From Erysipelotrichaceae bacterium (GTDB lineage: Bacteria > Bacillota_I > Bacilli_A > Erysipelotrichales > Erysipelotrichaceae): 32,000 nt of DNA. Position numbers and translations under genes: made by a program. The notes under the pieces were generated by a model that saw only the letters and a list, made by a program, of their open reading frames with translations, did not search any database and was not told the DNA's origin. Positions within the stretch are counted from its first letter, which is position 1. Every line of letters starts with the position of its first letter. Below are positions 6,013-21,951 of the stretch, one piece after another. The DNA lies in contig OY781039.1 of assembly GCA_963676105.1 (NCBI GenBank), positions 990,001 through 1,022,000 on the forward strand, given 5' to 3'.

Positions 6013-6031
6013 GGAAGCCTTAATAGCTTCC
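6013..6031 (-). terminator. Intrinsic terminator overlapping the stop of the 1225-aa gene
   Basis: On the minus strand ggaagc-tattaag-gcttcc is followed by TTTTTAAAGG. Confidence 0.5.
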
Positions 6032-9000
6032 TTCTAATTTATCTTCTTTTTTATCTTTTTTTCTTTTAAATAACCAATAAATGGCAGAAATAATCGCTAT
6101 ACCAATCGCAATCCCTAAGAATAAGACTTTAAGTGTTGCGCTTGCTGGATCGTCTTCTTTCTTAACACCTAGGACATAATAACTAAAGTGCTCTGTGAGA
6201 AAAACCATCGATTGATTAACAGGATCATAGACAGCCTTCATCGCTTGAATAGTTCCATCATCCGTATTATAGAAATACACTTCCATATTATTTGGATCAT
6301 ACTCACCATCAAGCTGATTTAAACCAATACCAACTTTGATCTTTCCACCTAATTCATGAACTGGTTCTTCTCTACCATCTGACCACACTTGGAAAAGTAG
6401 GTAGTCATAAGCAGCTACAATTTCCATATCTTCACCACTTAATAACTCTTCATTAATTTCGGCTTCTGCTTCAATAATTTGTGGTTGTACTTTAAGTGTT
6501 AAATATGCTCCATCTTCATGAGTATTGGAAATAATGTTATCTACCATTGAAACAGGAATGACAAACTGTACACTTCCCATTACGACTAAGATATTATCAT
6601 TGGCATCTAATCCCATTAAATCTTTTTGTGTTATTTGAATACCATATTGATCAGGATTATCATCTTGCACTTCACCAATATATGTGCGTTTAGGTGTTGC
6701 ATCAGGTTGAATTCCTGTTACATCCATTGATTTACTTGAATCATCAGGATAAGCATCACGAACATCAGGGACTCCATCATTATCAGTATCACTCAGTTGA
6801 GGTTTAAAGTTAATAGTATTTGAGCTTAGAGTATATTCACCATTTGAAACAGTTACTTTGATTGAATAGTTATCGTAAGCTTGCAAACCACTTAAATCAA
6901 TATTCAAATCTGAGCCAAATGATCCGACAACCGTTTCACCTGTTGTTAAATTTGTTAATTCGTAAGTATATGAATTAATCACAGGATATCCTTTATCTAT
7001 AACAGATAAATTTAATTGTGCGCCTTCAACATCAATACTGTCGATACTTAATTCACCAATCACTGGTGACTTATGTGTTCTTTCCCAAGATGCAACAATA
7101 TTCAATGAACCTGTTGTACCACGAGCGACCCAGTTTTGGTTAACACCATTAATTGTCCATCCTGTAAATGTATAGTCAGTTCTTGTTGGGTTGTTTAAAG
7201 TAAATCCATCTTCGATGGTATAACTCGTAGGATTTGAGGCATAACCACCACCCAAATCATAGGTAATACCATAAGATACAGTGTTCCATTTCGCATAAAT
7301 CGTTGTATTTTCACCTGGCATCACATCAAACTCATATACACCAGATAAACTTGAATCACTGCTCCAATAAGCAAAGGTATAACCTGTTCGACTTGGAGAT
7401 GATGGCGCGGTTATATCAGTTCCTGCATTTTGTGCGAGCGGTGAAACATATGATCCACCATTTGTATCAAAACTCATGGTATAAGCACCAACAACCCACT
7501 TAGCATATAAAGTAATATCGCTAGTACCCATCGTTGTATTATCAAAATCAAATTCATTCAAGAATGTTTCATCATCCGTATACCAACCATCAAAGGCATT
7601 TCCATATTTTGTAGGCGTTGTAGGAGGAGTAATTAAATCACCAAAATCCACATCAGCATTCGTAATATCATTTCCACCATTGGTGTTATAAATCACTTGA
7701 TTATATTGCGTTTCTGGATAACGTGCGACAATACTTCCACTATCAGCCGCATGGGTTAAAGAAGTTGTTCCACTTAATGTAAATGTGTTAGCCTCAATAC
7801 CTAATAAGTTATATCCTGATTTAGCGCTAACTGTAATATTGGCAGTATATATGGTTCCTGCATGGAATTTACCATCTGTTTCAGCAGGCAACCATGACAC
7901 CGTTGCAGTATAAGTATCACCACTAAAACTTGTGGTTTGTGTAGCCCCAGTCACTGGAACCGCAACACCTGATAGAGAAGTTGAAACAGTCCCAATGGTT
8001 GTAAAACTTACTTCATCGCCATAAGTTGTTCCATAGCTATTGATTGCATACGATCTAACATAATAAGTTGTATGCTCACTTAAACCTGTGACGTCTTCAC
8101 TAAATGTACTAAGTCCATTGGTTTCACCAAAATCATTAACAACCTTAGTACCACTATCCGTTGTTGGTCCAGTAGAGGTTGCATATACAAAACCTCTCTC
8201 TGTAATTGGTGCTGTATCTTCTGAATTATTACTTGTAACTTCACCTGAGAATGTAGCAGTTGTTTTATCATAAGTACTCACACTATTTGTAGGTTCTACT
8301 ATTGGTGCGCCATAAGCTACTAAGGTTAAGGTAGCTGATGAAATACTCGAATATTCATAAAAGTCATCACTAGTGTCACTAGGTGTTCCATTATCGTTAA
8401 CATATTTTGTTACTAGATAGACTGTGTATACACCACCTTGAGTTAATCCAGATAAACTAAAATCATGTGCCACATCAGCAGTTAATGATGCTGTACCATT
8501 TAAAGCAATGGTTGCACCTGTATAATCAACACCTGCCGCAATTTGATCTTCAGTTGGTGCCGTTGACCCTTCAGGAACAACAATATAATATGCAGTCGCA
8601 TCAACACTTGATGTCACAGAAAAATTTGCAGAATGATAATCAATATTTGTAAATGATGCTGCAGCAACAGATTGAATTGATGCAAGGGAACTAGATGCAT
8701 TTGGATCAAGCGAAGAATAAAAAACAATTGTTTCCGATGCTCCAGCAGCTAATGTGCCAATATCAAATGTAATTGCAATTCCATTATCATCATGGGCATA
8801 ACCATTATAATCCCCCGTTAAATCGGAAGATGTAAGTACATAGTTCTCTTCAATAACTGTATTTGGAACAGATGAATCATCCACCCAAAGCCCATTCATA
8901 TATGCATCACTAGGGTCAAATGCAACAAAAGCGGATGCCCTCGCTCTATCATCAAAAGAAATGAAAAAATATGGTTCTAGTGTTTCATCACCTCTTGCAA

Positions 9001-9697
9001 CTACCATAGCTGTTTGATTTCCACTGACACCCGTATTAGGATTGGAAATAACCTTTGCATAGGAAGCATAAGAACCATTTAAATCTTTATCTTGGTCTGG
9101 GTCAAATGATCTAACATATCTAACATTATCTACTGCAACTGAAGATAGATTTTCTATCGTAACAGTAGTCACAAAAAATTTATCATCGGTAGTAAAACTT
9201 ACGACTTGTGTCATTTTTATATTTTCTTTTGTAACCCCAGTCGTGACTGCTCTCATCAAACCATTTGCTGTATCAGAATCATCTACTGTAGAAAGTGCTG
9301 TAATTGGAGAATTCCAATTTTCTCCATTTCTTTCAGCAGCAATATTATTATATGCAGAACCGTCAATTTTATAGGCTAAGATAAATCTCTCTTCTGGTGT
9401 TCCAGGCAAGAAAAAATCACCAGTTGTTGGATCATTCCCATTATCCCATCCATCACCATCAACTGTAAGACCGACATTTGAACGACTAATTGCATGAAAA
9501 CCATCAGGTGCAGAATTATTTGTTCCAAAGGACCCTAAACTTGATACACCTACTTCAATGTATGTACCACCTAAGAAAACATCTCCACCAACAGTAACAG
9601 CACGTGCACCTGTTGCTGCATTAACATCAGTTAAACTAATACTCCATTGTGACAATAGAATTAATAACGCAATTAATAACTTTCCGATTCTACTCAT
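6020..9697 (-). CDS. Large tail-anchored surface protein (adhesin-like) with Listeria-Bacteroides repeats and a TSP3-like Ca-binding motif
   Basis: Signal peptide MSRIGKLLIALLILLSQWSISLTDVNA. Three repeats of the type ..NGG..(G)..F.GW(Y/T)....LYAKW (YNTNGGND..FDGWYTDD..LYAKW; FDTNGGSY..GYTFAYW..IYAKW; YDLGGGYA..YTFTGW). Fn3/Ig-like Thr/Ser-rich modules and DTDNDGVPDVRDAYPDD are present. The C-terminal TM (LFLGIAIGIAIISAIYWLF) carries a KRKKDKKEDK tail. There is no LPXTG. Confidence 0.85.
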   Translation of the reverse strand: MSRIGKLLIALLILLSQWSISLTDVNAATGARAVTVGGDVFLGGTYIEVGVSSLGSFGTNNSAPDGFHAISRSNVGLTVDGDGWDNGNDPTTGDFFLPGTPEERFILAYKIDGSAYNNIAAERNGENWNSPITALSTVDDSDTANGLMRAVTTGVTKENIKMTQVVSFTTDDKFFVTTVTIENLSSVAVDNVRYVRSFDPDQDKDLNGSYASYAKVISNPNTGVSGNQTAMVVARGDETLEPYFFISFDDRARASAFVAFDPSDAYMNGLWVDDSSVPNTVIEENYVLTSSDLTGDYNGYAHDDNGIAITFDIGTLAAGASETIVFYSSLDPNASSSLASIQSVAAASFTNIDYHSANFSVTSSVDATAYYIVVPEGSTAPTEDQIAAGVDYTGATIALNGTASLTADVAHDFSLSGLTQGGVYTVYLVTKYVNDNGTPSDTSDDFYEYSSISSATLTLVAYGAPIVEPTNSVSTYDKTTATFSGEVTSNNSEDTAPITERGFVYATSTGPTTDSGTKVVNDFGETNGLSTFSEDVTGLSEHTTYYVRSYAINSYGTTYGDEVSFTTIGTVSTSLSGVAVPVTGATQTTSFSGDTYTATVSWLPAETDGKFHAGTIYTANITVSAKSGYNLLGIEANTFTLSGTTSLTHAADSGSIVARYPETQYNQVIYNTNGGNDITNADVDFGDLITPPTTPTKYGNAFDGWYTDDETFLNEFDFDNTTMGTSDITLYAKWVVGAYTMSFDTNGGSYVSPLAQNAGTDITAPSSPSRTGYTFAYWSSDSSLSGVYEFDVMPGENTTIYAKWNTVSYGITYDLGGGYASNPTSYTIEDGFTLNNPTRTDYTFTGWTINGVNQNWVARGTTGSLNIVASWERTHKSPVIGELSIDSIDVEGAQLNLSVIDKGYPVINSYTYELTNLTTGETVVGSFGSDLNIDLSGLQAYDNYSIKVTVSNGEYTLSSNTINFKPQLSDTDNDGVPDVRDAYPDDSSKSMDVTGIQPDATPKRTYIGEVQDDNPDQYGIQITQKDLMGLDANDNILVVMGSVQFVIPVSMVDNIISNTHEDGAYLTLKVQPQIIEAEAEINEELLSGEDMEIVAAYDYLLFQVWSDGREEPVHELGGKIKVGIGLNQLDGEYDPNNMEVYFYNTDDGTIQAMKAVYDPVNQSMVFLTEHFSYYVLGVKKEDDPASATLKVLFLGIAIGIAIISAIYWLFKRKKDKKEDKLEGSY

Positions 9698-9820
9698 ATT
9701 AAACCCCTTTTATACATATATATCTATTATTATATAAATAGAAAGTCATTTAAAGGCTTTTATGTCTTTTATAAAAATGTATAAACGTAATTATGTTTAA
9801 TTTATACTAATATAAATAAA

Positions 9821-10690: not shown

Positions 10691-11719
10691 TTAATCATCA
10701 TCTTCCTCTTCTTCATCATTTTCATTTTCGTTATATGAACCATCATCTCGATCATCTTTGTCATCTTCATCATAAAGATCAGGTTTATCTGATTCATCAA
10801 GATAATGTATCGTTCCGTCTTCTAATATAATCATGTCATCATCATCGCCATCATAATCAGGACCATGATGATGATATAAATCTTTAATATCTTCAACTAA
10901 ATCCTCTAAATCAACACCCTCCGTATTTAAACGATCTCGATAAGCACTCACATCAATGCCAGTGCTTTCAGCTTCAATCAATAAAGCATTAATAATGTCT
11001 TTTAATTGATCATCACTTTGATGTTCTGCAATTTCCTCTAATTGATCCATATAAGTAGAGTTCATCATAAACTCACTAATACTCATGGTTTCACCATTCA
11101 CTGAAATCGTACGATTCACCATATACAAACCTAAGGATATTTCTTGTTCTTCAGAATGTTTATAATCATCTTCATCAGCTTCAATGACATAGGTCTTCAC
11201 AGTACTATCTAAATTTTGATTTAAATAAAGTTCTTGTTGAACATTATTCAATAATTCTTGATTATCAACCCCAAAGGATACACTAGATACAACAATCACA
11301 TCATTAAGTGTATCTTCTAAATTCATATAGCCTAAGGCAATTGCTTGCTCAATGACATCATCTAAGACTAAAACAATGTTTTGATTTAACCATGTTGAAG
11401 TATCAAAACTTTCAGCCTCAACGTTTAACATTTTTATATCAACCACATTTTGTTCCATATCCGTATAAAACTCAAAACTAGGATTTACATCGACACTGAC
11501 AACACCATAAGCTCTTACTTGATTAGGTGAAATGATGCCACCCTCTTCTCTAATTGGATTAATATTAAAGAAAATAAGTAAAACCATAGCTATTGACATT
11601 ACTGGCACCATCCAACGTAAACGTAAGACAGGTTTCTTTTCAGGTGTATCTAAAATGGTTTTTAATAGTTCGTCTTCATTTAAAAATGTTTTATCAACAG
11701 CTCTTTTTAAATTTCCCAT
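10691..11719 (-). CDS. Single-pass membrane protein, putative anti-sigma factor with an RsgI-like middle domain and an acidic C-terminal tail
   Basis: It starts 4 nt after the sigma gene, with AGGAGG inside the sigma 3' end. About 35 aa are cytoplasmic, followed by a TM (WMVPVMSIAMVLLIFFNI). The ectodomain opens with YGVVSVDVNPSFEFYTDMEQNVVDIKMLNVEAE, which resembles the B. subtilis RsgI middle domain (..IDINPSVE..). The tail is ..LYHHHGPDYDGDDDD..DEDDKDDRDDGSYNENENDEEEEDDD. Confidence 0.55.
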   Translation of the reverse strand: MGNLKRAVDKTFLNEDELLKTILDTPEKKPVLRLRWMVPVMSIAMVLLIFFNINPIREEGGIISPNQVRAYGVVSVDVNPSFEFYTDMEQNVVDIKMLNVEAESFDTSTWLNQNIVLVLDDVIEQAIALGYMNLEDTLNDVIVVSSVSFGVDNQELLNNVQQELYLNQNLDSTVKTYVIEADEDDYKHSEEQEISLGLYMVNRTISVNGETMSISEFMMNSTYMDQLEEIAEHQSDDQLKDIINALLIEAESTGIDVSAYRDRLNTEGVDLEDLVEDIKDLYHHHGPDYDGDDDDMIILEDGTIHYLDESDKPDLYDEDDKDDRDDGSYNENENDEEEEDDD

Positions 11720-11722
11720 TTT

Positions 11723-12238
11723 TTACGCCTCCTTTATTATCATCTGTCTAAGTGTCTCTAACGCTCTATAATATCGTGTCTTAACACTATTTTCTTTAAC
11801 TATTAATTGCTCTGATATTTCTTTAAAACTCATCTCTAACTTAATCTTAGCGGTAATAATCCGCTGATCAAGTGGAGACAATTGAAGCAAAGCTTTTTCA
11901 ATGCGTTCAATTTCATATTGATTGAAGACCGATTCTTCTAAATCAAAATCATCGACAACTTGCTCAAGTTTATCTTCCCAATCATCATCAACCAAAATTG
12001 TCTTTGATTTCTGTTTATAAAACTTTGATAACTCATTCTTAGCAATCTGAATTAAATAAGCTTCAATATTATCAATATCTAATGATTTCTTTCTTAACTG
12101 AATATATAAATTGGTAAACACAGAAGAAACCACATCTTCCGCATCGCTCATTTGAGGTACTTTAAAAATAACAAACTTAGATATTTGTCCAAAGTACTTA
12201 CGATAAATGCTTTCAAAGTGGTTTACATTAAACTGCAT
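11723..12238 (-). CDS. ECF-type RNA polymerase sigma factor (sigma-70 regions 2 and 4 only)
   Basis: 171 aa. The region 2-like part is ..YRKYFGQISKFVIFKV..AEDVVSSVFTNLY... The region 4 HTH-like part is LSPLDQRIITAKIKLEMSFKEISEQLIVKENSVKTRYYRALETLR. Confidence 0.85.
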   Translation of the reverse strand: MQFNVNHFESIYRKYFGQISKFVIFKVPQMSDAEDVVSSVFTNLYIQLRKKSLDIDNIEAYLIQIAKNELSKFYKQKSKTILVDDDWEDKLEQVVDDFDLEESVFNQYEIERIEKALLQLSPLDQRIITAKIKLEMSFKEISEQLIVKENSVKTRYYRALETLRQMIIKEA

Positions 12239-12240
12239 AT

Positions 12241-13167
12241 TTAATCGTCATCTTCCTCGTCATCGTCATCATGATCATCGTCGTGATGGTCATCATCATC
12301 TTCATCGTCATAATCTCGACTATCACCATCATTATGAGATTCATAGTGATCATCATCGTCGTCATCATCATGATCTTCTCCACCAACTGTTGCGCCTGTT
12401 GTCGTATCAGCGACTGCTGTAGTTGCACTTGTTGTAGGACTAGAGGTAACTGTTGTGGTCGTTGTTGTCTCATGGGTTGTGACTGATGCACCTGTTACCG
12501 TATCAGCTGGTGCAGGACTTGTACTAATCACAAAGTTCCCATTTGAATCAACACTTGCCGTTGAAGTTGTGGCAGTCGTTTCGTTGGCAGGGATAGTTGA
12601 TCCTGTTGTGGTATCAGCAGTTTGATCGACTACAACTGTATTACCATTTGCATCTGTTGTCGTTAAGACTGTATATTGATTGCCTGTAATTGGATCAGTC
12701 ATTACAGATTCTGTGGTTGCGCCTGTCGTCGTATCAACTACTTGATCAACCACTACTGTATTACCATTTGCGTCAACTGTTGTAAGTACAGTATACTCCT
12801 CACCAGTCACTGGGTCAGTCATAACAGTTTCTGTTGTCGTCCCTGTCGTTGTATCTACTGGAACTTCAACTAGTTGCGTTGTTGTTGTCCCATCAGGATT
12901 TGTTACTGTGATTTCTTGCGTCACTGTTTCAGTTGTGGTAGTCGCAGCTGTTTGTGTATCTGCAATACTCGCAATATATTGATCATATCGTTCTGTAAAG
13001 CTATTCAAGTTAGCGAGTTGAGGAATGGCTTGTACAATCGCACTGTTTTGACCAATGTCTGATTGGATCCATTCAATCGCTTTATCTTCGATAACACCAA
13101 TCCCAACACCAACACCGATTGTGCCTACTGTAATTGATGTAATTTTTAAAATGTGTAAAAGTTTCAT
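12241..13167 (-). CDS. N-terminally anchored Thr-rich repeat protein with a poly-Asp/His C-terminal tail
   Basis: SD GGGAGA precedes the ATG. The hydrophobic N-terminus is ITSITVGTIGVGVGIGVI. There are 40-aa tandem repeats. Of the last 45 residues, 27 are D, 5 are E and 6 are H. The stop lies 2 nt before the sigma gene start, so this is the first gene of the sigma operon. Confidence 0.8.
   Translation of the reverse strand: MKLLHILKITSITVGTIGVGVGIGVIEDKAIEWIQSDIGQNSAIVQAIPQLANLNSFTERYDQYIASIADTQTAATTTTETVTQEITVTNPDGTTTTQLVEVPVDTTTGTTTETVMTDPVTGEEYTVLTTVDANGNTVVVDQVVDTTTGATTESVMTDPITGNQYTVLTTTDANGNTVVVDQTADTTTGSTIPANETTATTSTASVDSNGNFVISTSPAPADTVTGASVTTHETTTTTTVTSSPTTSATTAVADTTTGATVGGEDHDDDDDDDHYESHNDGDSRDYDDEDDDDHHDDDHDDDDEEDDD
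12598..12858 (-). repeat. In-frame tandem repeat, 120-nt period, about 2.2 copies
   Basis: 12739-12858 and 12619-12738 align, for example ..ctgtattaccatttgc.. at a 120-nt offset. They encode VDTTTG(T/A)TTE(T/S)VMTDP(V/I)TG..YTVLTT.DANGNTVVVDQ.., and a third partial copy begins ADTTTGS. Confidence 0.9.
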
Positions 13168-13233
13168 ACAAATTCTCCCTTTTACTAACTACGAGTGTCC
13201 ATTGAATAGAATAGTTTCAAAAAACATATATTT

Positions 13234-13267
13234 TTGTCTAAGTTTTGTGACATTTAAACTTTAAACT
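13234..13267 (+). promoter_or_regulatory. Composite promoter P1: phased direct repeats, 10 bp, then -10
   Basis: TTGTCT(13234-39)-aagtt-TTGTGAC(13245-51)-atttaaactt-TAAACT(13262-67). P2 and P3 have the same geometry. Confidence 0.55.
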
Positions 13268-13276
13268 AAGTCTCGA

Positions 13277-13400
13277 GTTGAAAGGATAAACACAAAACAA
13301 TCACATAAACAAAACCAAAGGAATCAAAATTTGTTCCTCTTTGCATGGTTTTGCGTAATAAAGTAATGGTTCCCTACATAAACCGCTTTATCCTTTCAAC
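13277..13400 (+). promoter_or_regulatory. Structured 5' leader of the 13424 gene, closed by a perfect 14-bp long-range helix
   Basis: gttgaaaggataaa (13277-13290) is the exact reverse complement of tttatcctttcaac (13387-13400). An inner imperfect hairpin pairs aaaaccaaagga with tcctctttgcatggtttt (13311-13352). Confidence 0.5.
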
Positions 13401-13423
13401 CCCTTAAAATCTTGGAGAAACAT

Positions 13424-14188
13424 ATGAAAATCAAAACAATTATTATTGGACTCGCGATTGCCTTGGTAGGTGTCGCAGCAATTTATTACTTAGAAACCGA
13501 CGAAGAAGAACATGGCGATAATGAAGGTATTAGTTTAAGTCTGAGTGATGATGAAGGAATAAATGCAGAAGATGCTTATAGCATTTCTGGAAACACATCC
13601 ATCTTAGAAGTATCAGAAGTATTCAATATTGATGAAGCCATTCTTAAAGAAGCTTTCTGTTTAGGTGATGAAGTTGACATCAGTAACTTTGAAACACGTG
13701 ATCTTGAACATTACTATCTAAACTTAGATGAGAGTGTTGAAGTTGGTAATGAAGCAATGCAAGGTTTTGTCGCTTTGTATAATGGCTTAGACTTTGAACT
13801 CGAGGATATCTATTTAACAACAGAAGGAATTGCCTTATTAAATGAACATGGAAAATTAAGTACAGAACAACAAGGCTATTTTGAAAGTCACGCAGTTGAA
13901 ATTACAGAAGTTAGCTTAGCTGATGTTGAAACAGATTCAGAATCAGATGGTAATTACTCAGGAAACACTACCTTACAAGATGTCATCAACTCTGGGATAA
14001 CATTAGAAGAGATTGAAATGATTACTGGTATAGAAATTAGCGAAAAAAATATTCTACTAAGAGATTATGCTGAAGATAATGGTTTATCTTACGGTGGACT
14101 TAAAGAAGATCTACAAGATTACTACATTATTAATGTCTTAGGCATGACTTTAGAAGAATACGATGAAACGCACGAAGATGATCATTAA
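13424..14188 (+). CDS. Hyperacidic membrane-anchored protein of unknown function
   Basis: ATG at 13424 follows GGAG (13414-17); the track start at 13412 is TTG. The N-terminal TM is IKTIIIGLAIALVGVAAIYYL. The remainder is D/E-rich, with two internal repeats around SGNT(S/T)(I/L)..V. The protein ends ..EEYDETHEDDH. Confidence 0.75.
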   Translation: MKIKTIIIGLAIALVGVAAIYYLETDEEEHGDNEGISLSLSDDEGINAEDAYSISGNTSILEVSEVFNIDEAILKEAFCLGDEVDISNFETRDLEHYYLNLDESVEVGNEAMQGFVALYNGLDFELEDIYLTTEGIALLNEHGKLSTEQQGYFESHAVEITEVSLADVETDSESDGNYSGNTTLQDVINSGITLEEIEMITGIEISEKNILLRDYAEDNGLSYGGLKEDLQDYYIINVLGMTLEEYDETHEDDH

Positions 14189-14213
14189 AAAATAACACAA
14201 AAAGTCCAAACTA

Positions 14214-14247
14214 TTGTCATATTATTGTCACAATTCATTGGTATTCT
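14214..14247 (+). promoter_or_regulatory. Composite promoter P2: phased direct repeats, 10 bp, then -10
   Basis: TTGTCA(14214-19)-tatta-TTGTCAC(14225-31)-aattcattgg-TATTCT(14242-47). Confidence 0.55.
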
Positions 14248-14357
14248 AAGAGTGTACCAAAGAGGTATAGGTTAAATCCTTGCAGAAATAATGAATGCAA
14301 CACAACAACCCATAACCCCACAAACTTATACCCTTTGGTTAACACTCCCTTTTTCAT
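14235..14357 (-). CDS. Candidate small hydrophobic protein (40 aa), antisense to candidate sRNA 1
   Basis: Below the track's size cutoff. Minus strand AAAAGGGGG-ttttt-ATG. Hand translation: MKKGVLTKGYKFVGLWVVVLHSLFLQGFNLYLFGTLLEYQ*. The N-terminus is basic and is followed by one TM-length hydrophobic stretch. Confidence 0.4.
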   Translation of the reverse strand: MKKGVLTKGYKFVGLWVVVLHSLFLQGFNLYLFGTLLEYQ

Positions 14358-14411
14358 AAAAACCCCCTTTTATAAAGAAACTCAAATGATAAGCAGCATT
14401 TGAGTTTTTTT
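14254..14411 (+). ncRNA. Candidate sRNA 1 (approximate 5' end), from P2 to an intrinsic terminator
   Basis: A long imperfect helix (about 19 bp) pairs 14250-14269 with 14327-14347. Next comes the unpaired CU-rich segment ctttttcataaaaaccccc (14349-). The terminator is ctcaaatg(14381-88)/catttgag(14397-404) followed by T7. Confidence 0.5.
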
Positions 14412-14461
14412 ATTTCATAAAATTAAACGCCTATAAACAAGTTCACAAAACCTTCACAGCT

Positions 14462-14495
14462 ATGTCTTATAATTGTCACATTCACTTGTTAAACT
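14462..14495 (+). promoter_or_regulatory. Composite promoter P3: phased direct repeats, 10 bp, then -10
   Basis: ATGTCT(14462-67)-tataa-TTGTCAC(14473-79)-attcacttgt-TAAACT(14490-95). Confidence 0.55.
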
Positions 14496-14501
14496 TTAAT
14501 T

Positions 14502-14590
14502 GTTCAAAAGAAAACATCTATTGAACAAAAACTTTTTCATAAAAATCCCTTCTTAAAAATTCCGTATGAACAGCAGCATGCGGTTTTTTT
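14502..14590 (+). ncRNA. Candidate sRNA 2 (approximate 5' end), a shorter paralog of sRNA 1
   Basis: The 5' hairpin is ttgttcaa(14500-07)/ttgaacaa(14521-28). It is followed by ctttttcataaaaatccc (14532-49). The terminator is ccgtatg(14562-68)/catgcgg(14577-83) followed by T7. The block 14532-14590 aligns with 14349-14411. Confidence 0.5.
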
Positions 14591-14606
14591 ATGTCAAAAA
14601 GCTAAG

Positions 14607-14615
14607 TGCTATAAT
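14607..14615 (+). promoter_or_regulatory. Extended -10 promoter of the lipoprotein gene
   Basis: TGcTATAAT lies 84 nt upstream of the ATG at 14699. Confidence 0.5.
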
Positions 14616-14698
14616 GGAAATAAAGAAGTGTTGAAGCACTAATGTATAAACATAATAATTGTTTTTAAAAGTGTATTTGACAGTTAGTGAGGGAATGT

Positions 14699-15964
14699 AT
14701 GAAAAAGATTATTAAATTTGCCTTAGTCATGTTTTTAAGCATGACTTTTTTAGTCGCTTGTTCAAGTAGCGATACATCGGGTGGTGAAGTCATTGAAGAT
14801 GCGCAAGATGAAGTGATTGAAGAAGTAGATGAAACACAAGTCTATGCGATCGTACAACTTAGTGTAAATCCAACACTTGCCTTCAATGTAAACTGGTATA
14901 AAAAGGTCGTTAGTGTTGAACCAGTAAACACAGATGCAGAAATTTTAGATACTACAGACTATGTTGGCATGGATGTTGATGAAGCGATTGAAGCCTCAGT
15001 GGAGCAAATGGAAGAACTAGAAATTATAAATTTAAGTGACTTAGAAGCTGATTATGCACTCATTACTTCAGCCATCACTGATGATGCATCAGAAACGTAT
15101 CGTGCAGAATTACAGGAAAAAATCCAAGCACGGATTGACTATACGGGTCCTTTATCATCGATGAATGTGGCACAGATGGAAATCGATATGGCGACTCAAG
15201 ATGCCGCAGATAAAGCGATGATCTCAGCCATTGACTATGTTATTGATATGGATACATCTCATGAAGATGGTGAATACTTTAATATTGCCCGTATCTTTCA
15301 AGAAGAAAGTTTAACTGAACAACTCATGGCGACACATTCATTAAGTATTACTGAAGAATCTTTAGAAAATATGAGAGGTAATATTGAAACTGCCTTAGCG
15401 GATTTAGAAAGTCAAGGATATGAGGTAGAATATATCCGTCAAATGATGAATGAGGGAGAAGATACGGTAAACATGCTTCAAACGGTTCAATCAGAAATCA
15501 TAGATTTTAGACAAGTTAAAGAAGAAGAAAAGAAAGCCGCTGAAGAAGCAGCTGCCAAAGCGGCTGAGGGCATCAGTGTTAATAATGTATCCATTTCAAA
15601 ATCCGGTATGCCTACTGTCTTTAATATTACAGTTGATGCTGATGAAGCGGTAAGTGTTTATGTCTTAGTTGAAGCCGATAATGTCTATGCTTCAAATTCA
15701 TACAGCGCATCACAAGTTATTAATGGACAATCTCCAGCTGCAGGACAAAATGGCTATATAGTTATTCATGAAGTATTTAGTCATTCAGGAAGTGGTTCAC
15801 AAAGCTTTACTCTTAATATGGCAAACTATATGGATAATGATGGAGGCGATGCGCAGCCTGATGATGGAAATGGCCCACCAGAAGGTGAAAGCGGTGGTGT
15901 ACCAGTTGCCCTTGTTGTCTGTAAAGATGCAGATGGTAACGTCACAGAGATTACTGCTCAATAA
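14699..15964 (+). CDS. Acidic lipoprotein with an RsgI-middle-like domain (paralog of the anti-sigma ectodomain)
   Basis: ATG at 14699 follows GAGGGA; the track start at 14687 is GTG. The lipobox is MKKIIKFALVMFLSMTFLVAC|SSS. VYAIVQLSVNPTLAFNVNWYKKVVSVEPVNTDAEIL aligns with YGVVSVDVNPSFEFYTDMEQNVVDIKMLNVEAESF of 10691..11719. Confidence 0.8.
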   Translation: MKKIIKFALVMFLSMTFLVACSSSDTSGGEVIEDAQDEVIEEVDETQVYAIVQLSVNPTLAFNVNWYKKVVSVEPVNTDAEILDTTDYVGMDVDEAIEASVEQMEELEIINLSDLEADYALITSAITDDASETYRAELQEKIQARIDYTGPLSSMNVAQMEIDMATQDAADKAMISAIDYVIDMDTSHEDGEYFNIARIFQEESLTEQLMATHSLSITEESLENMRGNIETALADLESQGYEVEYIRQMMNEGEDTVNMLQTVQSEIIDFRQVKEEEKKAAEEAAAKAAEGISVNNVSISKSGMPTVFNITVDADEAVSVYVLVEADNVYASNSYSASQVINGQSPAAGQNGYIVIHEVFSHSGSGSQSFTLNMANYMDNDGGDAQPDDGNGPPEGESGGVPVALVVCKDADGNVTEITAQ

Positions 15965-15970
15965 AAACGT

Positions 15971-15996
15971 AAACGGATCAAATTTGATCCGTTTTT
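15971..15996 (+). terminator. Intrinsic terminator of the lipoprotein gene
   Basis: The perfect palindrome aaacggatcaa-at-ttgatccgttt is followed by a T-run. Confidence 0.8.
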
Positions 15997-16058: not shown

Positions 16059-16691
16059 TTATCCAAAGTCAACGTGTTGACCTTTGATTTCATAAATAAT
16101 ATGTTCACAGATATTCTTTGTATGATCTCCTGCACGCTCAATATTTCTAAGCATGGAAACAGTTGGGATAAGTTTAGATATATCATCACCTTTGGTTTCT
16201 AAGTGCGCTAATAGTTTCTTAAAGGCATCATCAATCTTGTCATCTTGAGCAGGGTTTGTAAATGCTGCATCGACATCTAAATCTTCAAATGATTTGATTG
16301 TCGCATCATAGAAATTCAAGAACAACTCACCTAAAGGCTTAATATACTCCAAAAGTGAGTCATCGACTTTATCATTTTTAATGATAAAACGAGCCATGTT
16401 TTTCGCATAATCCCCTATACGCTCTAAATCTGTCGCAATCTTTATACCGGCTAAGATAATACGTAAATCTTTTGCGACTGGATTTAAAAGTGATAATACT
16501 TCAATCGCACGATCATTAATATCCTCATTGGCATTATTCACATACTCATCAAGTTCAATCACATTTAAGGCATTGGTTTTATCACCTGTAATCAAAACTT
16601 CTAAAGCTAAGACATACATTTTACGAACACGAGATGCCATTATCTCAACTTGTTCACGATATAAATTTAATTCTGTATCAATTTTAACCAT
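16059..16691 (-). CDS. phoU: Phosphate signaling complex protein PhoU
   Basis: 210 aa with two PhoU-type repeats (..ATDLERIGDYAKN.. and ..LRNIERAGDHTKN..). It is the last gene of the pst cluster. Confidence 0.92.
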   Translation of the reverse strand: MVKIDTELNLYREQVEIMASRVRKMYVLALEVLITGDKTNALNVIELDEYVNNANEDINDRAIEVLSLLNPVAKDLRIILAGIKIATDLERIGDYAKNMARFIIKNDKVDDSLLEYIKPLGELFLNFYDATIKSFEDLDVDAAFTNPAQDDKIDDAFKKLLAHLETKGDDISKLIPTVSMLRNIERAGDHTKNICEHIIYEIKGQHVDFG

Positions 16692-16709
16692 TTTCTATTT
16701 CTCCTTTAA

Positions 16710-17474
16710 TTAACCAAATCGTCCTGTTATGTAATCTTCAGTCCGTTTATCCTTTGGAATATGGAAGAGTTCCTTAGTCGGACTCTTTTCAATTACTTCT
16801 CCGAGTAGGAAGAAGGCTGTATCATCACTGATACGGGCTGCTTGTTGCATACTGTGCGTTACGATAACAATCGTATAATTTTGTTTTAATTCTTGAATGA
16901 GTTCTTCAATTTTTGCAGTCGCAATCGGATCTAAAGCAGAAGTTGGTTCGTCCATGAGAATGACCTCTGGTTCCATCGCAATCGCACGGGCAATACATAA
17001 ACGTTGTTGTTGACCACCTGATAAACCATAAGCATTATCATGTAGACGATCTTTAACTTCATCCCATAGCGCTGCTTTACGTAAAGACTCTTCACAGACT
17101 TCATCTAGTTTCTTTTTGTTTTTAATATTTTGACAACGAAGACCATAGATAACATTTTCATAAATACTCATTGGGAATGGATTTGGTTTTTGAAAAACCA
17201 TTCCCACCTTTGTTCGAAGATCTACGACATTTATCTCATTTCCTAAGATGTCTTTCCCCTCCATATTGATGTCACCATTAATCGTTACACCAGGGATTAA
17301 ATCATTCATACGATTCAAACATCTCAGTAATGTTGATTTACCACAACCAGAAGGACCGATAAAAGCTGTAACTGCTTTATTTTTAATGTCTAGGTTTATT
17401 CCTTTAAGGGCTTGTTTTTCTCCATAATAGAGATCTAAGTTATTAATTTCAAATACATTGTTCATATCTTTCAC
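16710..17474 (-). CDS. pstB: Phosphate ABC transporter ATP-binding protein PstB
   Basis: Walker [10 protein letters not shown], signature [14 protein letters not shown], Walker [12 protein letters not shown]. PstB-typical context ([28 protein letters not shown]). Confidence 0.95.
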
Positions 17475-18683
17475 CTACCATGTTTTTTGTAAACGTTTCG
17501 CAATAAGCTTAACGCTGAAATTCATTAAGAGTACGATTGCCAAAATAATAATTGAAATGGCAGACGCTAGTTGGAAGTTAGGTTGTTCACCTGACATCAC
17601 TGCCCAAATCTGTACCGCTAGTGATGTCCCTCCATTTAGTAATGTTGGATTATCAGAGACAAATGTTCCCATTGTATAAATCAGAGCTGCGGATTCGCCA
17701 ATGATTCGACCTATTCCCAGTAAGGTTGCGGTAAGGATACCTGGCATCGCTGAGGGCAATACAATTTTAAATATCGTTTGAGAGGTATTGGCCCCTAGTG
17801 ATAATGATGCATCTCTGAAATTTTGAGGAACAACTTTTAAACTTTCTTCTGTGGTTCTAATGATCGTTGGCATTAAGACAATCGACATCGTTAGACCACC
17901 AAGTAGAATACTGGTACCACTAGCCCCAAAGACTGCTGTAATTGGGAATAGAACCAAAACACCCATTAAACCAAAGATGATTGATGGAACCCCTGTTAAG
18001 AGTTCAATTGAGTATCGAATATAAGGTGTAAACTTGGATGTTTTCGCATATTCATTTAAATATATAGCTGTGGCAATCCCTATCGGTAGAGCAAAGAAGA
18101 GTGAAATACCAATGAGGTATAAAGTTGAGATTAACGAACCAAAGATACCGCCACCTTGTGATTGGATAAAAGCAGAATCTAAAGCTACTGAACTATCTAG
18201 TGCGGCCACTGTTTCAGCAGCATTCATATTAACCACATTCCCGGCTGAGCGTGTCACGCCATTACTATTCACATATGCAAACTTTTCAACCCACATTGAG
18301 GTGCTTAGATTTACATCTTCGCCTTCATGTCCAGCTTGTAAGGATGTCGTAGTCCAATACGCTGAATCAGGATCTGCATAAACTATTTCTATGACTGCTT
18401 CATTATGTGGATCTACTTCATCAATCAAGGCAATCCCATAAGCAGTAGAGAAGTAAACATCATCCCCTAAATGTTCAGGTTTAACATAATTTGCAGGTGT
18501 TACTTCATCAAAAGACACCATATAATTATCAGACCAATATGAGCCTGCAAATAAATCAAAGCTCAAGGAAGAAAATCCTTTGGAAAAAATAAAATAGATC
18601 ACTAAAGCTAATACAAAAACAGAAAGTGAGGACATGATATAAACAAGTCCGTTCAATAAATTATCTTTAAGTTTGCGACTCAT
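17475..18683 (-). CDS. pstA: Phosphate ABC transporter permease PstA, with an enlarged first extracytoplasmic loop
   Basis: EAA-loop region (..TTEESLKVVPQNFRDASLSLGANTSQT..) and position between pstC and pstB. It is 402 aa; the extra length lies between TM1 and the next TM (about residues 40-175). Confidence 0.9.
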   Translation of the reverse strand: MSRKLKDNLLNGLVYIMSSLSVFVLALVIYFIFSKGFSSLSFDLFAGSYWSDNYMVSFDEVTPANYVKPEHLGDDVYFSTAYGIALIDEVDPHNEAVIEIVYADPDSAYWTTTSLQAGHEGEDVNLSTSMWVEKFAYVNSNGVTRSAGNVVNMNAAETVAALDSSVALDSAFIQSQGGGIFGSLISTLYLIGISLFFALPIGIATAIYLNEYAKTSKFTPYIRYSIELLTGVPSIIFGLMGVLVLFPITAVFGASGTSILLGGLTMSIVLMPTIIRTTEESLKVVPQNFRDASLSLGANTSQTIFKIVLPSAMPGILTATLLGIGRIIGESAALIYTMGTFVSDNPTLLNGGTSLAVQIWAVMSGEQPNFQLASAISIIILAIVLLMNFSVKLIAKRLQKTW

Positions 18684-19615
18684 TTTGATCCTCCAATTCT
18701 ATTCTTAATAAAATTAATCGATAAATTCGATAAAAGAATAACAATCATCAATACAATCCCAACTGAGAAACGAATATCATAATCTAAACCTTGGGTTTCT
18801 TTTAAACCTGCCAGTAGGGTTGTTGTTAGAGTACGCGTAATATCAAATAAATCAAATGTTGGTCCAAACATTTTATTTCCAGCCACCATAGACACAGCTG
18901 TTGCTTCACCAAACGCACGACCTAAACCTAAAATACCTCCCGCAAAGATTCCTGATTTAGCTGAACTAAGAACCACTTTGAAATTAGTTTGAGTTGTCGT
19001 TGCGCCAAGCGCTAAAGATGCGAGTTCTAAATCACGATCAACGGCTTTAATCGCGGTAATTGATATTGATGTAATGGTTGGAAAAATCATAATCGCTAAA
19101 AGCAATATAACCGCTAAAAGTGAACTACCCCCAGCTGTTTGAACACCAAAATTGAGGGCTAAGTTTTTAACCATAGTCACGATATACCCTGCCGCAAAAA
19201 CCCCATACACAACTGATGGAATAGAGGCGAGTATTTCAACAACTGTTTGAAAAGCTGCCCCAATTTTCTTTGGTGCAATCTTCACAATAAATAAAGCAGT
19301 CAAAACTGATACGGGAAATGAAAGTAATAATGCGCTAAACCCAGATATTACAGTGTTAATTACAATAAATAAAACCCCGTAAATGGCTTGGTCTTGACGC
19401 CACATCGTTCCTGTTAAAAATGCCCATAAATCTTGTTGACCAAATTCATAATTTGGCAAAAATGGTTGAATTCCCTTTTGAGCCACAAAAACAATAATCA
19501 AAACAATCATTAAAGAACTAATGAGGGCTGATGTTGTAAACAAAACTCTAAAGAAAGCATCTTGTTGAAGTTTACGTTTTAATCGTTTTTGATGGTCTAT
19601 TTCGTGTACTGTCAT
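18680..19615 (-). CDS. pstC: Phosphate ABC transporter permease PstC
   Basis: 311-aa polytopic permease with ..AIKAVDRDLELASLALGATTTQT... It overlaps pstA by 4 nt. Confidence 0.9.
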   Translation of the reverse strand: MTVHEIDHQKRLKRKLQQDAFFRVLFTTSALISSLMIVLIIVFVAQKGIQPFLPNYEFGQQDLWAFLTGTMWRQDQAIYGVLFIVINTVISGFSALLLSFPVSVLTALFIVKIAPKKIGAAFQTVVEILASIPSVVYGVFAAGYIVTMVKNLALNFGVQTAGGSSLLAVILLLAIMIFPTITSISITAIKAVDRDLELASLALGATTTQTNFKVVLSSAKSGIFAGGILGLGRAFGEATAVSMVAGNKMFGPTFDLFDITRTLTTTLLAGLKETQGLDYDIRFSVGIVLMIVILLSNLSINFIKNRIGGSK

Positions 19616-19703
19616 AATTGTTATCCTTTATTTAAAAAACGTGTTAAAGACTTAAGTACATGATGTACTTAAGTCTAATCAATCTTAAGTTTTGTCTAAA
19701 TGA

Positions 19704-20639
19704 TTATTGTAATTCTTCCCAAGAACTTAGTGCTCCTGTGAAGACGTCATAGACTTGGGCTTGAGTGATTGATGTTAAAGGGTTGTTAATTTCAACGATA
19801 ACCGCAATACCATCTTTACACATCACACCATTGATTGCGCCATCCGCAACCGTTTCTGTATCTTTAAAATCACGTGATGCGAAACCAATATCAGCTGCGT
19901 TTGCACCATCTTTTTCTTCACCTAAGGTACGTTTGAAACCATCACCTGAACCAGTTTGATCCATTGTGAATTGAACTCCGGTTAAAGCTTGGAAGCTCTC
20001 AAGGGCTGCTTTAACAGCTTTTTCGACAGAAGTAGAACCACCAGTTGAAATGGTATAAGCACTTAAATCAGTTGTCGCAATTGGGTAATCAGCTTTTAAG
20101 TCATCCCAGTTAAGAGCGTTATCGTAAGATACGATACCACCTGCACCCTCAACAACTTCTAAACCTTCAACAGACATTGTCATATAAGCAATAAATGCCA
20201 ACACAACTTCTTCTTGTTCAGTTGATGCAAAGTCACCAGTTGCACGTGTTACGTATGAGAATGGACGGGCAAGCGTATAGTCACCAGCCACAACATTTTC
20301 TTGAGTTGCGTCAACACCTTCAAATTGTAAAGCTTTAACATTGTTTGCCGCAAAGTCAGTAGTCAATGAAGCATAACCAATCGCATTAGTATCTTCCCCG
20401 ACCTTAACAGCCATATCACCATTACCAGAAACTTCAATCGCATTAACGGTTAATTCACCTTCAAAACCAATAATTTCTTCGAAGGCACCACGTGTACCAG
20501 ATGATGCATCACGTGTGTAAACGTTAATATCTCCTGTAACGCCAGCAGGTGTAACATCTTCTTCAGCAGGTGTTGATGAACAACCTGTTAGGATTAAACC
20601 TAAAGTAAGAAGAGGTATTAATTTTTTAATGTATTTCAT
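19704..20639 (-). CDS. pstS: Phosphate-binding lipoprotein PstS
   Basis: ATG at 20639 follows GGAGG; the track start at 20678 lacks an SD. The lipobox is LTLGLILTGC|SS. ..YTRDASSGTRGAFEE.. is typical of PstS-family binding proteins. Confidence 0.9.
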   Translation of the reverse strand: MKYIKKLIPLLTLGLILTGCSSTPAEEDVTPAGVTGDINVYTRDASSGTRGAFEEIIGFEGELTVNAIEVSGNGDMAVKVGEDTNAIGYASLTTDFAANNVKALQFEGVDATQENVVAGDYTLARPFSYVTRATGDFASTEQEEVVLAFIAYMTMSVEGLEVVEGAGGIVSYDNALNWDDLKADYPIATTDLSAYTISTGGSTSVEKAVKAALESFQALTGVQFTMDQTGSGDGFKRTLGEEKDGANAADIGFASRDFKDTETVADGAINGVMCKDGIAVIVEINNPLTSITQAQVYDVFTGALSSWEELQ

Positions 20640-20685
20640 TTTTCCTCCAGAAACATCTCTTTGTTTCGTGTATATCATAAAAAAA

Positions 20686-20713
20686 ACACAAGATGCTTTG
20701 ATGTATCTTGTGT
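20686..20713 (-). terminator. Intrinsic terminator between phoR and pstS
   Basis: The stem acacaagat/atcttgtgt has a 10-nt loop. On the minus strand it is followed by T8. Confidence 0.7.
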
Positions 20714-20727
20714 TAATTAAATGTAAA
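20711..20727 (-). promoter_or_regulatory. Candidate Firmicute-type PhoP box pair upstream of pstS
   Basis: The minus strand reads TTTACA-tttaa-TTAACA. This matches the B. subtilis PhoP repeat TT(A/T/C)ACA with a 5-bp spacer. Only one pair is present, and it abuts the terminator stem. Confidence 0.3.
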
Positions 20728-20742
20728 GAAAAATTAATAAAA

Positions 20743-21951
20743 CTATTTTGGAAACTTAAGCAAGACGGATGTACCTTTATCTATTTCGCTTTCAACGCTT
20801 ATTTCAGCTTGATGCATATTCACATAAGCTTTAACGATCGCTAGCCCTAAACCAGAACCACCACTAAGGCGTGCTCTTGATGTATCACTTCTGAAAAAAC
20901 GATCAAAAATATGACCTAAATCTTCATGTGAAATCCCAATACCTGTATCAACTATTTCAATTAAAGTATGGTTTTTATCTTCATTCACATTAATATTGAT
21001 TTTTCCTTTATACGTGTACTTAGAAGCATTACTGATTAAATTAGTCATTATCTGATGAAATTTCTCAGCATCCACTTTAATTTTTAAATGTTTATCACAA
21101 TTCACATTGATTTGATTTTCATTCTTTAAAATTGATGGATATAAAGACTGAATAGCTGAATCGATAAGATCATTCGCATTGAAAACTTGCGTGTTCAAAA
21201 TCACCTTCGCATTCGCTTGTTTCGATAATTCAGCCAAATCTTTAATAATATTATCCATTCTTTTTGCTTCATCTTGAATATGGTGTAAAAACTCTTTTGA
21301 TGTATCATCATCTTTAAAGTTAGGTCGATTTAATATCTCTACCATACCTAATATTGAAGTTAAAGGTGTTTTGAGTTCATGCGAGGCATCGGCAATAAAA
21401 CGTTTCTGTAAACGTTCACCTTCTAAAAGGGCCGTAATATCTAAAAACATCAACAAACAACCGTTGTAACGCTTCTCATCATAAATAGGGACATTAATCG
21501 CTTGCACATCAATCGCATCCAAACGCATATTTTGACTATAAGCTTCTTCTTTTAAATAAGCTGTACGTACAAAACTAGTGACTTCATCATTTATACTATG
21601 TTGACTATAAATCAAAGGTTTCGATGCATAGAGTTGATTAAAATGTTCATTTGTTAGTTTAAAATCCCCTTGAATATCTAACAAAGCAATTGGAAATGGT
21701 AAGTTTTGTACAATCGTTTCAAGTTGTGATGCTTGAACTTGAGAAAAACGTTCACGCACCTTTGAACTCGATTCTAAACTTGATAATTCTGTTTCATAAG
21801 CTTTAATTCGAAGTTCTAATAATTGTTGATATAAAAGATAATTGATCCCAGCCAAGGTCACAATGATTATCCAAGCTGGTACCACATTTAAAAAAGCTAG
21901 TATGATTCCCAGCCCATTTAAAAAAATTAAACTAATGGCTTGAATTCTCAC
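20743..21951 (-). CDS. phoR: Sensor histidine kinase, PhoR-like
   Basis: Two N-terminal TMs with almost no external loop, then a PAS-like segment. HisKA is FIADASHELKTPLT. The HATPase_c motifs are NLISNASKY, DTGIGI and GGSGLGLAIV. Adjacent to pst. Confidence 0.8.
   Translation of the reverse strand: MRIQAISLIFLNGLGIILAFLNVVPAWIIIVTLAGINYLLYQQLLELRIKAYETELSSLESSSKVRERFSQVQASQLETIVQNLPFPIALLDIQGDFKLTNEHFNQLYASKPLIYSQHSINDEVTSFVRTAYLKEEAYSQNMRLDAIDVQAINVPIYDEKRYNGCLLMFLDITALLEGERLQKRFIADASHELKTPLTSILGMVEILNRPNFKDDDTSKEFLHHIQDEAKRMDNIIKDLAELSKQANAKVILNTQVFNANDLIDSAIQSLYPSILKNENQINVNCDKHLKIKVDAEKFHQIMTNLISNASKYTYKGKININVNEDKNHTLIEIVDTGIGISHEDLGHIFDRFFRSDTSRARLSGGSGLGLAIVKAYVNMHQAEISVESEIDKGTSVLLKFPK

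Follow-up and report, generated by a model that had tools for sequence, protein, structure and literature searches.

The stretch of DNA analysed here (the window; 32,000 nucleotides (nt) of contig OY781039.1 of an Erysipelotrichaceae bacterium, positions 990,001–1,022,000) includes a gap of 510 nt, at 14189–14698 of the window, between two genes, one encoding an acidic membrane-anchored protein and the other a lipoprotein; the phosphate-uptake cluster phoU-pstBACS-phoRP converges on the second. The closest match of the PhoU encoded there was found, at 84% identity, in the metagenome-assembled genome (MAG) OY760660.1, and the remaining close matches were freshwater MAGs. The gap holds two units on the + strand, U1 and U2, which are real features and very probably functional small-RNA (sRNA) genes. 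As discussed below, we read them, with a probability of roughly 0.6, as a pair of paralogues encoding trans-acting small regulatory RNAs whose action resembles that of the csRNAs of Streptococcus.

The original prediction described two paralogous promoter-to-terminator units, and all the features it described were found where it had placed them (Table 1). U1 and U2 share the segment CUUUUUCAUAAAAA(C/U)CCC plus the terminator; of the 18-mer CTTTTTCATAAAAAYCCC the window has exactly two copies, at 14349–14366 and 14532–14549, where ~0.19 matches (with up to 3 mismatches) would be expected by chance and 2 of 100 shuffles gave at least two. Their 3′ blocks do align, over 28 nt at 86% and 25 nt at 76%. 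The start of U1 was assumed to lie 7 nt past the −10 and its end to be the last U of the terminator. Against shuffled controls, the + strand of each unit folded well (z-scores in Table 1), while the − strand of U1 reached a z-score of only −3.1. Folding and unpaired probabilities supported the 5′ helix, the unpaired segment that would pair with a translation start (the seed) and the terminator with its U7: the seed was predicted to be unpaired with a mean probability of 0.76–0.92, and its C-run with ~1.0, in all copies.

Table 1 Units U1 and U2, their candidate targets and the neighbouring genes, in window coordinates
Feature	Position	Strand	Remarks
U1 predicted small RNA, ~158 nt	14254–14411	+	Folding z −6.0; homologues
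U1 direct-repeat array	14192–14230	+	ATAACA 14192, AGTCCA 14203, TTGTCA 14214, TTGTCA 14225; 11-nt phase
U1 extended −10, TGgTATTCT	14239–14247	+	11 nt past proximal hexamer
U1 5′ domain	14254–14343	+	Closing helix P1, 14254–14273 with 14323–14343; compensatory pairs, arm-swap test
U1 invariant UCCUUGCA, inside P1	14277–14284		Small hairpin 14280–14284/14296–14300
U1 unpaired C-rich loop CCCAUAACCCCA	14309–14320	+	Within P1
U1 unpaired anti-translation-start segment CUCCCUUUUUCAUAAAAACCCCC	14345–14367	+	Anti-AUG CAU 14355–14357; C-rich anti-Shine–Dalgarno runs on both sides
U1 intrinsic terminator	14374–14388/14397–14411	+	Loop with AAGCAGC; U-run 14405–14411
U2 predicted small RNA, ~89 nt	14502–14590	+	Folding z −4.8; csRNA model alignment
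U2 direct-repeat array	14440–14478	+	AGTTCA, CCTTCA, ATGTCT, TTGTCA; 11-nt phase
U2 extended −10, TGtTAAACT	14487–14495	+	
U2 5′ hairpin	14502–14511/14517–14526	+	Folding
U2 unpaired CUUUUUCAUAAAAAUCCC	14532–14549	+	Folding
U2 terminator	14562–14568/14577–14583	+	Stem, then U7
Candidate target, lipoprotein start	14689–14707	+	Shine–Dalgarno GAGGGA 14689–14694, ATG 14699; best in-window U2 partner
Candidate target, start of 1,225-residue surface-protein gene 6020–9697	9672–9716	−	Best U1 partner among starts; Pfam Flg_new repeats
Acidic membrane-anchored protein gene	13412–14188	+	5′ neighbour of gap
Lipoprotein gene with RsgI_M domain	14699–15964	+	3′ neighbour of gap; lipobox FLVAC in translation
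phoU-pstBACS-phoRP cluster	16059–22631	−	Convergent on lipoprotein gene
SigI-like sigma factor	11723–12238	−	Upstream of gap, other side
RsgI_M (RsgI-like) anti-sigma factor	10691–11719	−	Beside SigI-like gene

Homologues of the U1 type were present in four further lineages of uncultured Erysipelotrichaceae, as five sequences (loci L083, L101, L003, L084 and L085), and always lay directly 3′ of a homologue of the acidic-protein gene 13412–14188. Nine relatives of this gene were found: all those with at least 63% protein identity carried one U1-type unit (L083, L101, L003 and L084/L085), and five distant ones (49–51% identity) had just a 29–40-nt gap before a convergent phoU. U2 and the lipoprotein gene were specific to this window when compared with the four other lineages. 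Where the window has these two, L003 (10741–11401) and L083 (2540–3203) have a toxin–antitoxin-like module of the PHD_like antitoxin family, which suggests variable insertion at this site beside phoU. A BLAST search of the intergenic region against 82 pst–phoU loci returned L003 alone, a seed-plus-terminator pattern gave no extra copies over ~700 kb of related loci, and a metagenome scan with the promoter pattern revealed no further homologues of the U1/U2 RNA.

The closing helix P1 measured 19–26 base pairs (bp) in every homologue and started no more than a few bases from the predicted transcription start, its 5′ arms being 30–59% alike. MAFFT did not bring both P1 arms into register for six sequences, and RNAalifold lost P1 in the alignment concerned (A2); we therefore used a five-sequence alignment and an arm-swap energy test in place of a covariance model. 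Compensatory double changes affected 11 of the 19 pairs of P1 (RNAalifold, five sequences) and 6 of the 12 terminator-stem pairs were compensatory, counts that are descriptive, since they come from only five U1-type sequences that are independent and from one U2. Cognate P1 arms paired with a mean energy of −24.0 kcal/mol and non-cognate arms with −11.1, with no overlap between the two sets. Each P1 helix contains 1–3 G-U pairs, which identify the + strand as the RNA strand.

The unpaired parts of the RNA are those that stayed constant. Conservation of the seed in related genomes, on which the original prediction depended, was checked, and TTTTCATAAAA was invariant in all homologues and predicted to be unpaired in every copy. 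The single-stranded linker consists of an invariant UUUUCAUAAAA followed by the C-run, and the apical region combines the invariant UCCUUGCA with an unpaired C-rich stretch, CCCAUAACCCC. The terminator loops (14389–14396 and 14569–14576, and at the same place in L083, L101, L003 and L084) were AGCAGC-, AACAAC- or CAGCAA-like while their stems covary, which is unusual.

Upstream of each unit, direct hexamer repeats take the place of a −35. The box is TTGTCAtattaTTGTCA at 14214–14230 for U1 and ATGTCTtataaTTGTCA at 14462–14478 for U2, both 11 nt 5′ of an extended −10 of the form TGnTAnnnT; read two bases further on, the U2 array becomes TTCACA, TTCACA, GTCTTA and GTCACA, with two perfect TTCACA repeats. 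The array and its geometry recur in L083, L101, L003 and L084, where the box is WTGTCA-N5-WTGTCA at the same 11-nt distance. All six units have an identical promoter geometry (four in-phase hexamers, then 11 nt including TGn, then TAnnnT), and their 11-bp repeat periodicity in place of a −35 is that of Pho regulon promoters. Promoters that response regulators of the OmpR/PhoB family activate typically have this layout, and the U1 array is presumed to be the binding site of such a regulator. Further copies of the repeat box were not enriched in the window (19 loose matches against 22.6 expected).

Which regulator this might be was judged from the box and the neighbouring genes. The response regulator encoded at 21948–22631, in the phoPR-pst cluster, has a PhoP/PhoB-type recognition helix, RIVDVHISKLRQKL, and the classical PhoB Pho box (CTGTCATAWAWCTGTCAY, ~10 bp 5′ of the −10) is nearly the same in sequence and distance as the TGTCAT-N5-TGTCAC seen here. 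The original prediction had spoken of a ‘P-box’: the box is real, conserved and a match to the PhoB-type Pho box, but the pstS promoters of this genome (TTTACA-N5-TTAACA) and its relatives are of the TTAACA type, like those of Bacillus subtilis PhoP, with TTAACA arrays as the rule upstream of this gene across 25 related loci. PhoP is for this reason no more than a candidate regulator of the sRNA promoters. In these promoters, both proximal hexamers are of the TGTCA type; a TTAACA-like distal hexamer (ATAACA, ATCACA, TAAACA or TTAACA) occurs in five of the six units, namely L101, L003, L083, L084 and, one repeat further up, U1. These distal hexamers and the TTCACA repeats of U2 count in favour of PhoP, and the repeat type at pstS counts against it.

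An exact-pattern metagenome scan with the sRNA promoter pattern retrieved 12 contigs. In two of them (L090 and L099, probably proteobacterial) the pattern lay upstream of PPK2-like and PstS-like open reading frames (ORFs), in what look like genuine Pho-box promoters, so the sRNA box is indistinguishable from a classical PhoB site. The WalR consensus, TGTWAH-N5-TGTWAH, also resembles it. We regard PhoP as the leading candidate, at slightly under even odds, and hold another OmpR-family response regulator to be equally probable; that the U1 and U2 promoters work without any activator is unlikely.

Complementarity of the seed to the start of the adjacent lipoprotein gene, proposed as 9 + 4 bp, was found as 9 contiguous bp plus GGGA, and extends to 17 nt at 82% (14691–14707). 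The 9-mer ATGAAAAAG is present three times in the window, in both units (− strand) and at the lipoprotein start at 14699; since 1.19 copies are expected, and 8 of 100 shuffles gave at least three, the 9-mer match is by itself only mildly unusual, and ATGAAAAAG is a start sequence of a common kind. We scanned both strands of the window with the two seeds, excluding the antisense strands of the units themselves. Among 31 start regions (median about −8 kcal/mol), the lipoprotein start came first for U2, at −19.9 kcal/mol (background −5.7 ± 2.9), and the start of the surface-protein gene 6020–9697 came first for U1, at −23.8 to −24.0 kcal/mol in sliding scans and −20.7 on the stretch from −25 to +15; these two regions occupied ranks 1 and 2.

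The idea that the adjacent lipoprotein gene is the partner was borne out in part. It is the top in-window match of U2, but it is not a conserved partner, since none of the four other lineages has it beside the unit, and U1 pairs better with 6020–9697. A sole relative of the lipoprotein (P0002, 39% identity) was found at locus L001, in another genomic context; the lipoprotein itself (P0001) had no entry in the contig index. The seed is generic, being antisense to ribosome-binding sites at large, and the lipoprotein and 6020–9697 starts are accordingly candidates only.

The analysis shows the gene structure, its strand, conservation and covariation, and that the units are non-coding; from these features we infer transcription, an activator, translational repression and targets. 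Each unit would be transcribed from its own −35-less promoter, activated by an OmpR/PhoB-family response regulator for which the neighbouring PhoP is the leading candidate, and transcription would end at the intrinsic terminators to give RNAs of ~158 nt (U1) and ~89 nt (U2). The 5′ helix and the terminator would hold between them an unpaired 5′-CUUUUUCAUAAAAA(C/U)CCC-3′, antisense to a ribosome-binding site of the low-GC kind (A-rich second codons, AUG, an A/U spacer and a G-rich Shine–Dalgarno sequence), and U1 would display a second C-rich loop besides this seed. Their most likely action is base pairing with several mRNAs, probably those of envelope proteins, at the Shine–Dalgarno sequence and AUG, which would keep the 30S subunit from binding, as has been shown for the csRNAs of streptococci.

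Several observations weigh against this interpretation. A generic seed is expected to rank highly any start with a G-rich Shine–Dalgarno sequence and AUG-AAA; in the finer, full sliding scan a few non-start sites equalled the best start region for U1; and no locally conserved target emerged from the loci of the relatives. At pstS the repeats are TTAACA and not the TGTCAY of the sRNA-promoter box, and a scan for box plus extended −10 over ~700 kb of related loci gave the sRNA promoters and one likely chance match only. Under permissive Rfam settings, the top match of U2 was the csRNA family (RF02379) at 24.8 bits, far below the gathering threshold of 57 (E 0.13–0.57), and U1 and its homologues had no csRNA match. 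The small number of sequences behind the covariation counts belongs here as well, as does the lack of a terminator of its own for the gene upstream of U1, by which part of the RNA could be read-through.

This last point leads to an explanation in which U1 is the structured 3′ untranslated region (UTR) and terminator of 13412–14188, the small RNA arises by read-through or processing, and U2 is a duplicated terminator module. The repeat box stands 25 nt past the stop codon (14186–14188) with no separate terminator between, the unit always trails a homologue of this gene, and small RNAs derived from 3′ UTRs are a known class. We nevertheless consider it unlikely: the repeat box and TGnTAnnnT are kept at fixed spacing in all six units, including U2, which stands behind a terminator with no coding sequence upstream, and the distant homologues of the gene, with their short gaps before phoU, have no unit. 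Such an origin would be compatible with sRNA function, and mainly concerns how the RNA is made.

U1 and U2 could also be sRNAs that act otherwise, sequestering a protein or RNA through their C-rich loops and the AGCAGC terminator loop, or activating translation. The conserved terminator loop on covarying stems would suit such a role, as would two elements with no assigned partner, the apical C-rich loop and the invariant UCCUUGCA; the sRNA PhoS of Bacillus is an example of a PhoP-dependent RNA that activates translation (PMC11522486). Against this stands the invariant core, an exact anti-AUG and anti-Shine–Dalgarno sequence in the order and spacing of the csRNAs, which block translation by pairing with start regions and for which repression is documented (PMC3091779); we find an action other than repression quite unlikely.

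The original prediction left open a trans- or a cis-acting RNA, and comparative evidence favoured the first and spoke against the second. As a cis-acting leader or attenuator, U2 or both units would control the lipoprotein gene through terminator read-through; they do lie on the same strand directly 5′ of 14699, and the seed complements its start. The lipoprotein gene, however, has a perfect extended −10 of its own, TGCTATAAT at 14607–14615, right behind the U2 terminator, and its sole relative, at L001, has no U1- or U2-like element upstream. In the relatives, the U1-type unit is followed by a convergent gene, either the two-gene toxin–antitoxin-like module or phoU (L003, L083 and L084/L085), and probably so in L101, where the contig ends ~50 nt past the unit; a unit on which the next gene converges is not a 5′ leader. 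A same-strand downstream gene, as a cis leader or riboswitch would have, is thus not conserved across the four other lineages, and we rate a cis-acting role as very unlikely. A bidirectional terminator at 15971–15994 is common to the lipoprotein gene and the convergent phoU.

Neither strand carries a conserved reading frame, so the units are non-coding. On the + strand, a short ORF ending TCA-TAA is found in three units (U1, L083 and L003, with a ...TLPFS* end) and absent from three (L101, L084 and U2), and was rejected since the conserved block is read in differing frames. On the − strand, the segment could be seen as a ribosome-binding site (GGGGG-UUUUU-AUG-AAA-AAG) for small peptides, with the + strand RNA as its antisense in a type I toxin–antitoxin-like pair, and every copy does have a good Shine–Dalgarno sequence and ATG on that strand. 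The ORFs behind it (40, 47, 25, 14, 7 and 3 codons) are dissimilar, being unrelated past MKK, so that the conserved small hydrophobic ORF of a type I toxin is missing; the UCCUUGCA block falls in differing frames, the G-U pairs of P1 become C-A mismatches on the − strand, which folds less well, no − strand promoter is conserved, and the hairpin lies upstream of the ORF. We reject this reading as highly improbable. The 40-residue hydrophobic ORF opposite U1 (14235–14357, − strand), whose ribosome-binding site MKKGVLTKGYKFVGLWVVVLHSLFLQGFNLYLFGTLLEYQ is a good one, lacks conservation in the relatives and is probably fortuitous.

Hardly credible is a SigI-type promoter (of which we take the consensus to be an A-tract plus CCCCC and a −10 of CGWA) with AAAAACCCCC as the −35 serving the lipoprotein gene: a SigI-like and RsgI_M pair does lie at 10691–12238, the lipoprotein has an RsgI_M domain and CGTA (U2) or CGAA (L101) stands 12–13 nt past the C-run, but the CGWA position falls inside the covarying terminator stem, where the remaining four copies have CAAA, CATA or ACCA, and in the relatives no same-strand gene follows. 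A SigI promoter reading of AAACCCCC was also rejected, its −10 not being conserved and no gene lying downstream. The SigI/RsgI_M pair is flanked by proteins with C-terminal tails extremely rich in Asp, Glu and His: such tails are found on 12241–13167 (−), 10691–11719 (−) and 13412–14188 (+). The gene arrangement from 10691 to 14188 is kept in L003 and L086.

We compared the trans-acting sRNA genes that we propose with known RNA families. At gathering thresholds, Rfam gave no match in the whole window, and with permissive settings neither the U1 homologues nor the human-gut units described below had consistent matches. Among sRNAs of Bacillales, RsaE/RoxS and the Rsa RNAs of Staphylococcus aureus have unpaired C-rich motifs predicted to pair with G-rich Shine–Dalgarno sequences, and RoxS is controlled by ResD. 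Neither RsaE/RoxS nor the other C-rich-motif sRNAs matched U1 or U2 in Rfam even at E ≤ 10; their architecture differs, and an anti-AUG is present in U1 and U2.

PhoS of Bacillus velezensis and B. subtilis is a 66-nt RNA from the 3′ UTR of phoR that activates phoP translation by freeing the ribosome-binding site (PMC11522486). It resembles U1 and U2 in being a low-GC Gram-positive sRNA beside pho/pst genes, proposed to be PhoP-dependent and acting at a ribosome-binding site (PMC11522486), whereas the units here lie at the opposite end of the cluster, beyond phoU, with predicted promoters of their own and an anti-start seed. In the window, the phoR–pstS gap (20686–20727, − strand), whose position corresponds to the location of PhoS, has TTTACA at 20727–20722 and TTAACA at 20716–20711 overlapping a terminator-like hairpin at 20713–20686; arrays of the form TTAACA-N5-TTAACA are general at pstS in Erysipelotrichaceae loci.

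Seven human-gut contigs from the metagenome scan (L091–L095, L097 and L100; for example L100 3975–4235, − strand) carry the same promoter pattern, cGTCATatttcTGTCACa, followed by TTGgTATCCT. The RNA behind it is unrelated to U1 and U2; it is a GC-rich structured RNA of ~190 nt (z −5.7) with C-rich loops, ending in GUUUUUCAUAUUUUCCUCC or GUUUUUCAUAUUUUCCUCCUAAG and a terminator. It has no Rfam match, and in L100 it is flanked by a shikimate-kinase-like gene and a lipoprotein gene. By appearance it is an anti-ribosome-binding-site unit of analogous kind, belonging to a distant, Clostridia-like lineage. That a TGTCAY-N5-TGTCAC box, when followed by structured RNA with an anti-ribosome-binding-site stretch and then a terminator, marks a wider, undescribed class of sRNAs under two-component control across Firmicutes is a tentative suggestion, with the odds clearly against it.

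The closest likeness is to the csRNAs, which are defined by a CiaR repeat, (N)TTAAG-N5-TTTAAG, ten bases 5′ of the −10, an intergenic position and a terminator within 250 nt; they are 51–202 nt long, usually have two stem-loops, and carry an unpaired anti-Shine–Dalgarno and CAU region with the nonamer [A/C]UCCUAAA[A/C] (PMC3091779). U1 and U2 are likewise intergenic promoter-to-terminator units within this size range, with a hexamer-N5-hexamer response-regulator repeat ~10 nt 5′ of the −10 that replaces the −35, and with a 5′ stem-loop and terminator around an unpaired anti-Shine–Dalgarno and CAU region. The csRNA model spans U2 from end to end, exactly 14502–14590, aligning the core UUUUUCAUAAUAAUCUCC with the nearly identical csRNA UUUUUCAUAAAAAUCCC. 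Both kinds of RNA have several similar paralogues per genome, some clustered: csRNA genes number two to six per genome, and csRNA1, 2 and 4 are clustered in one pneumococcal region (PMC3091779). Tandem copies with activator-dependent promoters of their own, which the original prediction thought unusual, are thus the csRNA arrangement.

The differences lie in the box, which is not that of CiaR but TTGTCA-N5-TTGTCA (U1) or ATGTCT-N5-TTGTCA (U2), 11 nt 5′ of the −10; in the host, an Erysipelotrichaceae bacterium, since CiaRH is reported from no genus but Streptococcus (PMC8186281); in the Rfam score, below gathering for U2 and with no match for U1; in the nonamer, absent from U2 and replaced in U1-type units by an invariant AUCCUUGCA; and in U1 itself, whose long-range 20-bp closing helix surrounds a 50-nt C-rich loop. 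Because the CiaR box is absent, U1 and U2 are analogues of the csRNAs and not members; by this analogy they would work like csRNAs, while failing the tests of box, host, score and nonamer that define the family. They form an RNA family without an Rfam model, which they add to annotation, and their design is a variant of a known one.

Regulators of the csRNA type, small RNAs under two-component control with several paralogues and a generic seed against ribosome-binding sites, have been described only in Streptococcus, tied to CiaRH; the same design with a different box in uncultured freshwater Erysipelotrichaceae suggests that it is older than the CiaR regulon or was reinvented. Beside a phosphate-uptake locus, U1 and U2 are candidates for post-transcriptional control of envelope proteins. 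If PhoP is their regulator, phosphate limitation would act through these RNAs to repress the translation of lipoproteins and surface proteins, in a phosphate-responsive counterpart of the streptococcal CiaR–csRNA circuit. The mechanism is a familiar one; the lineage, the different box and the possible wider class are new.

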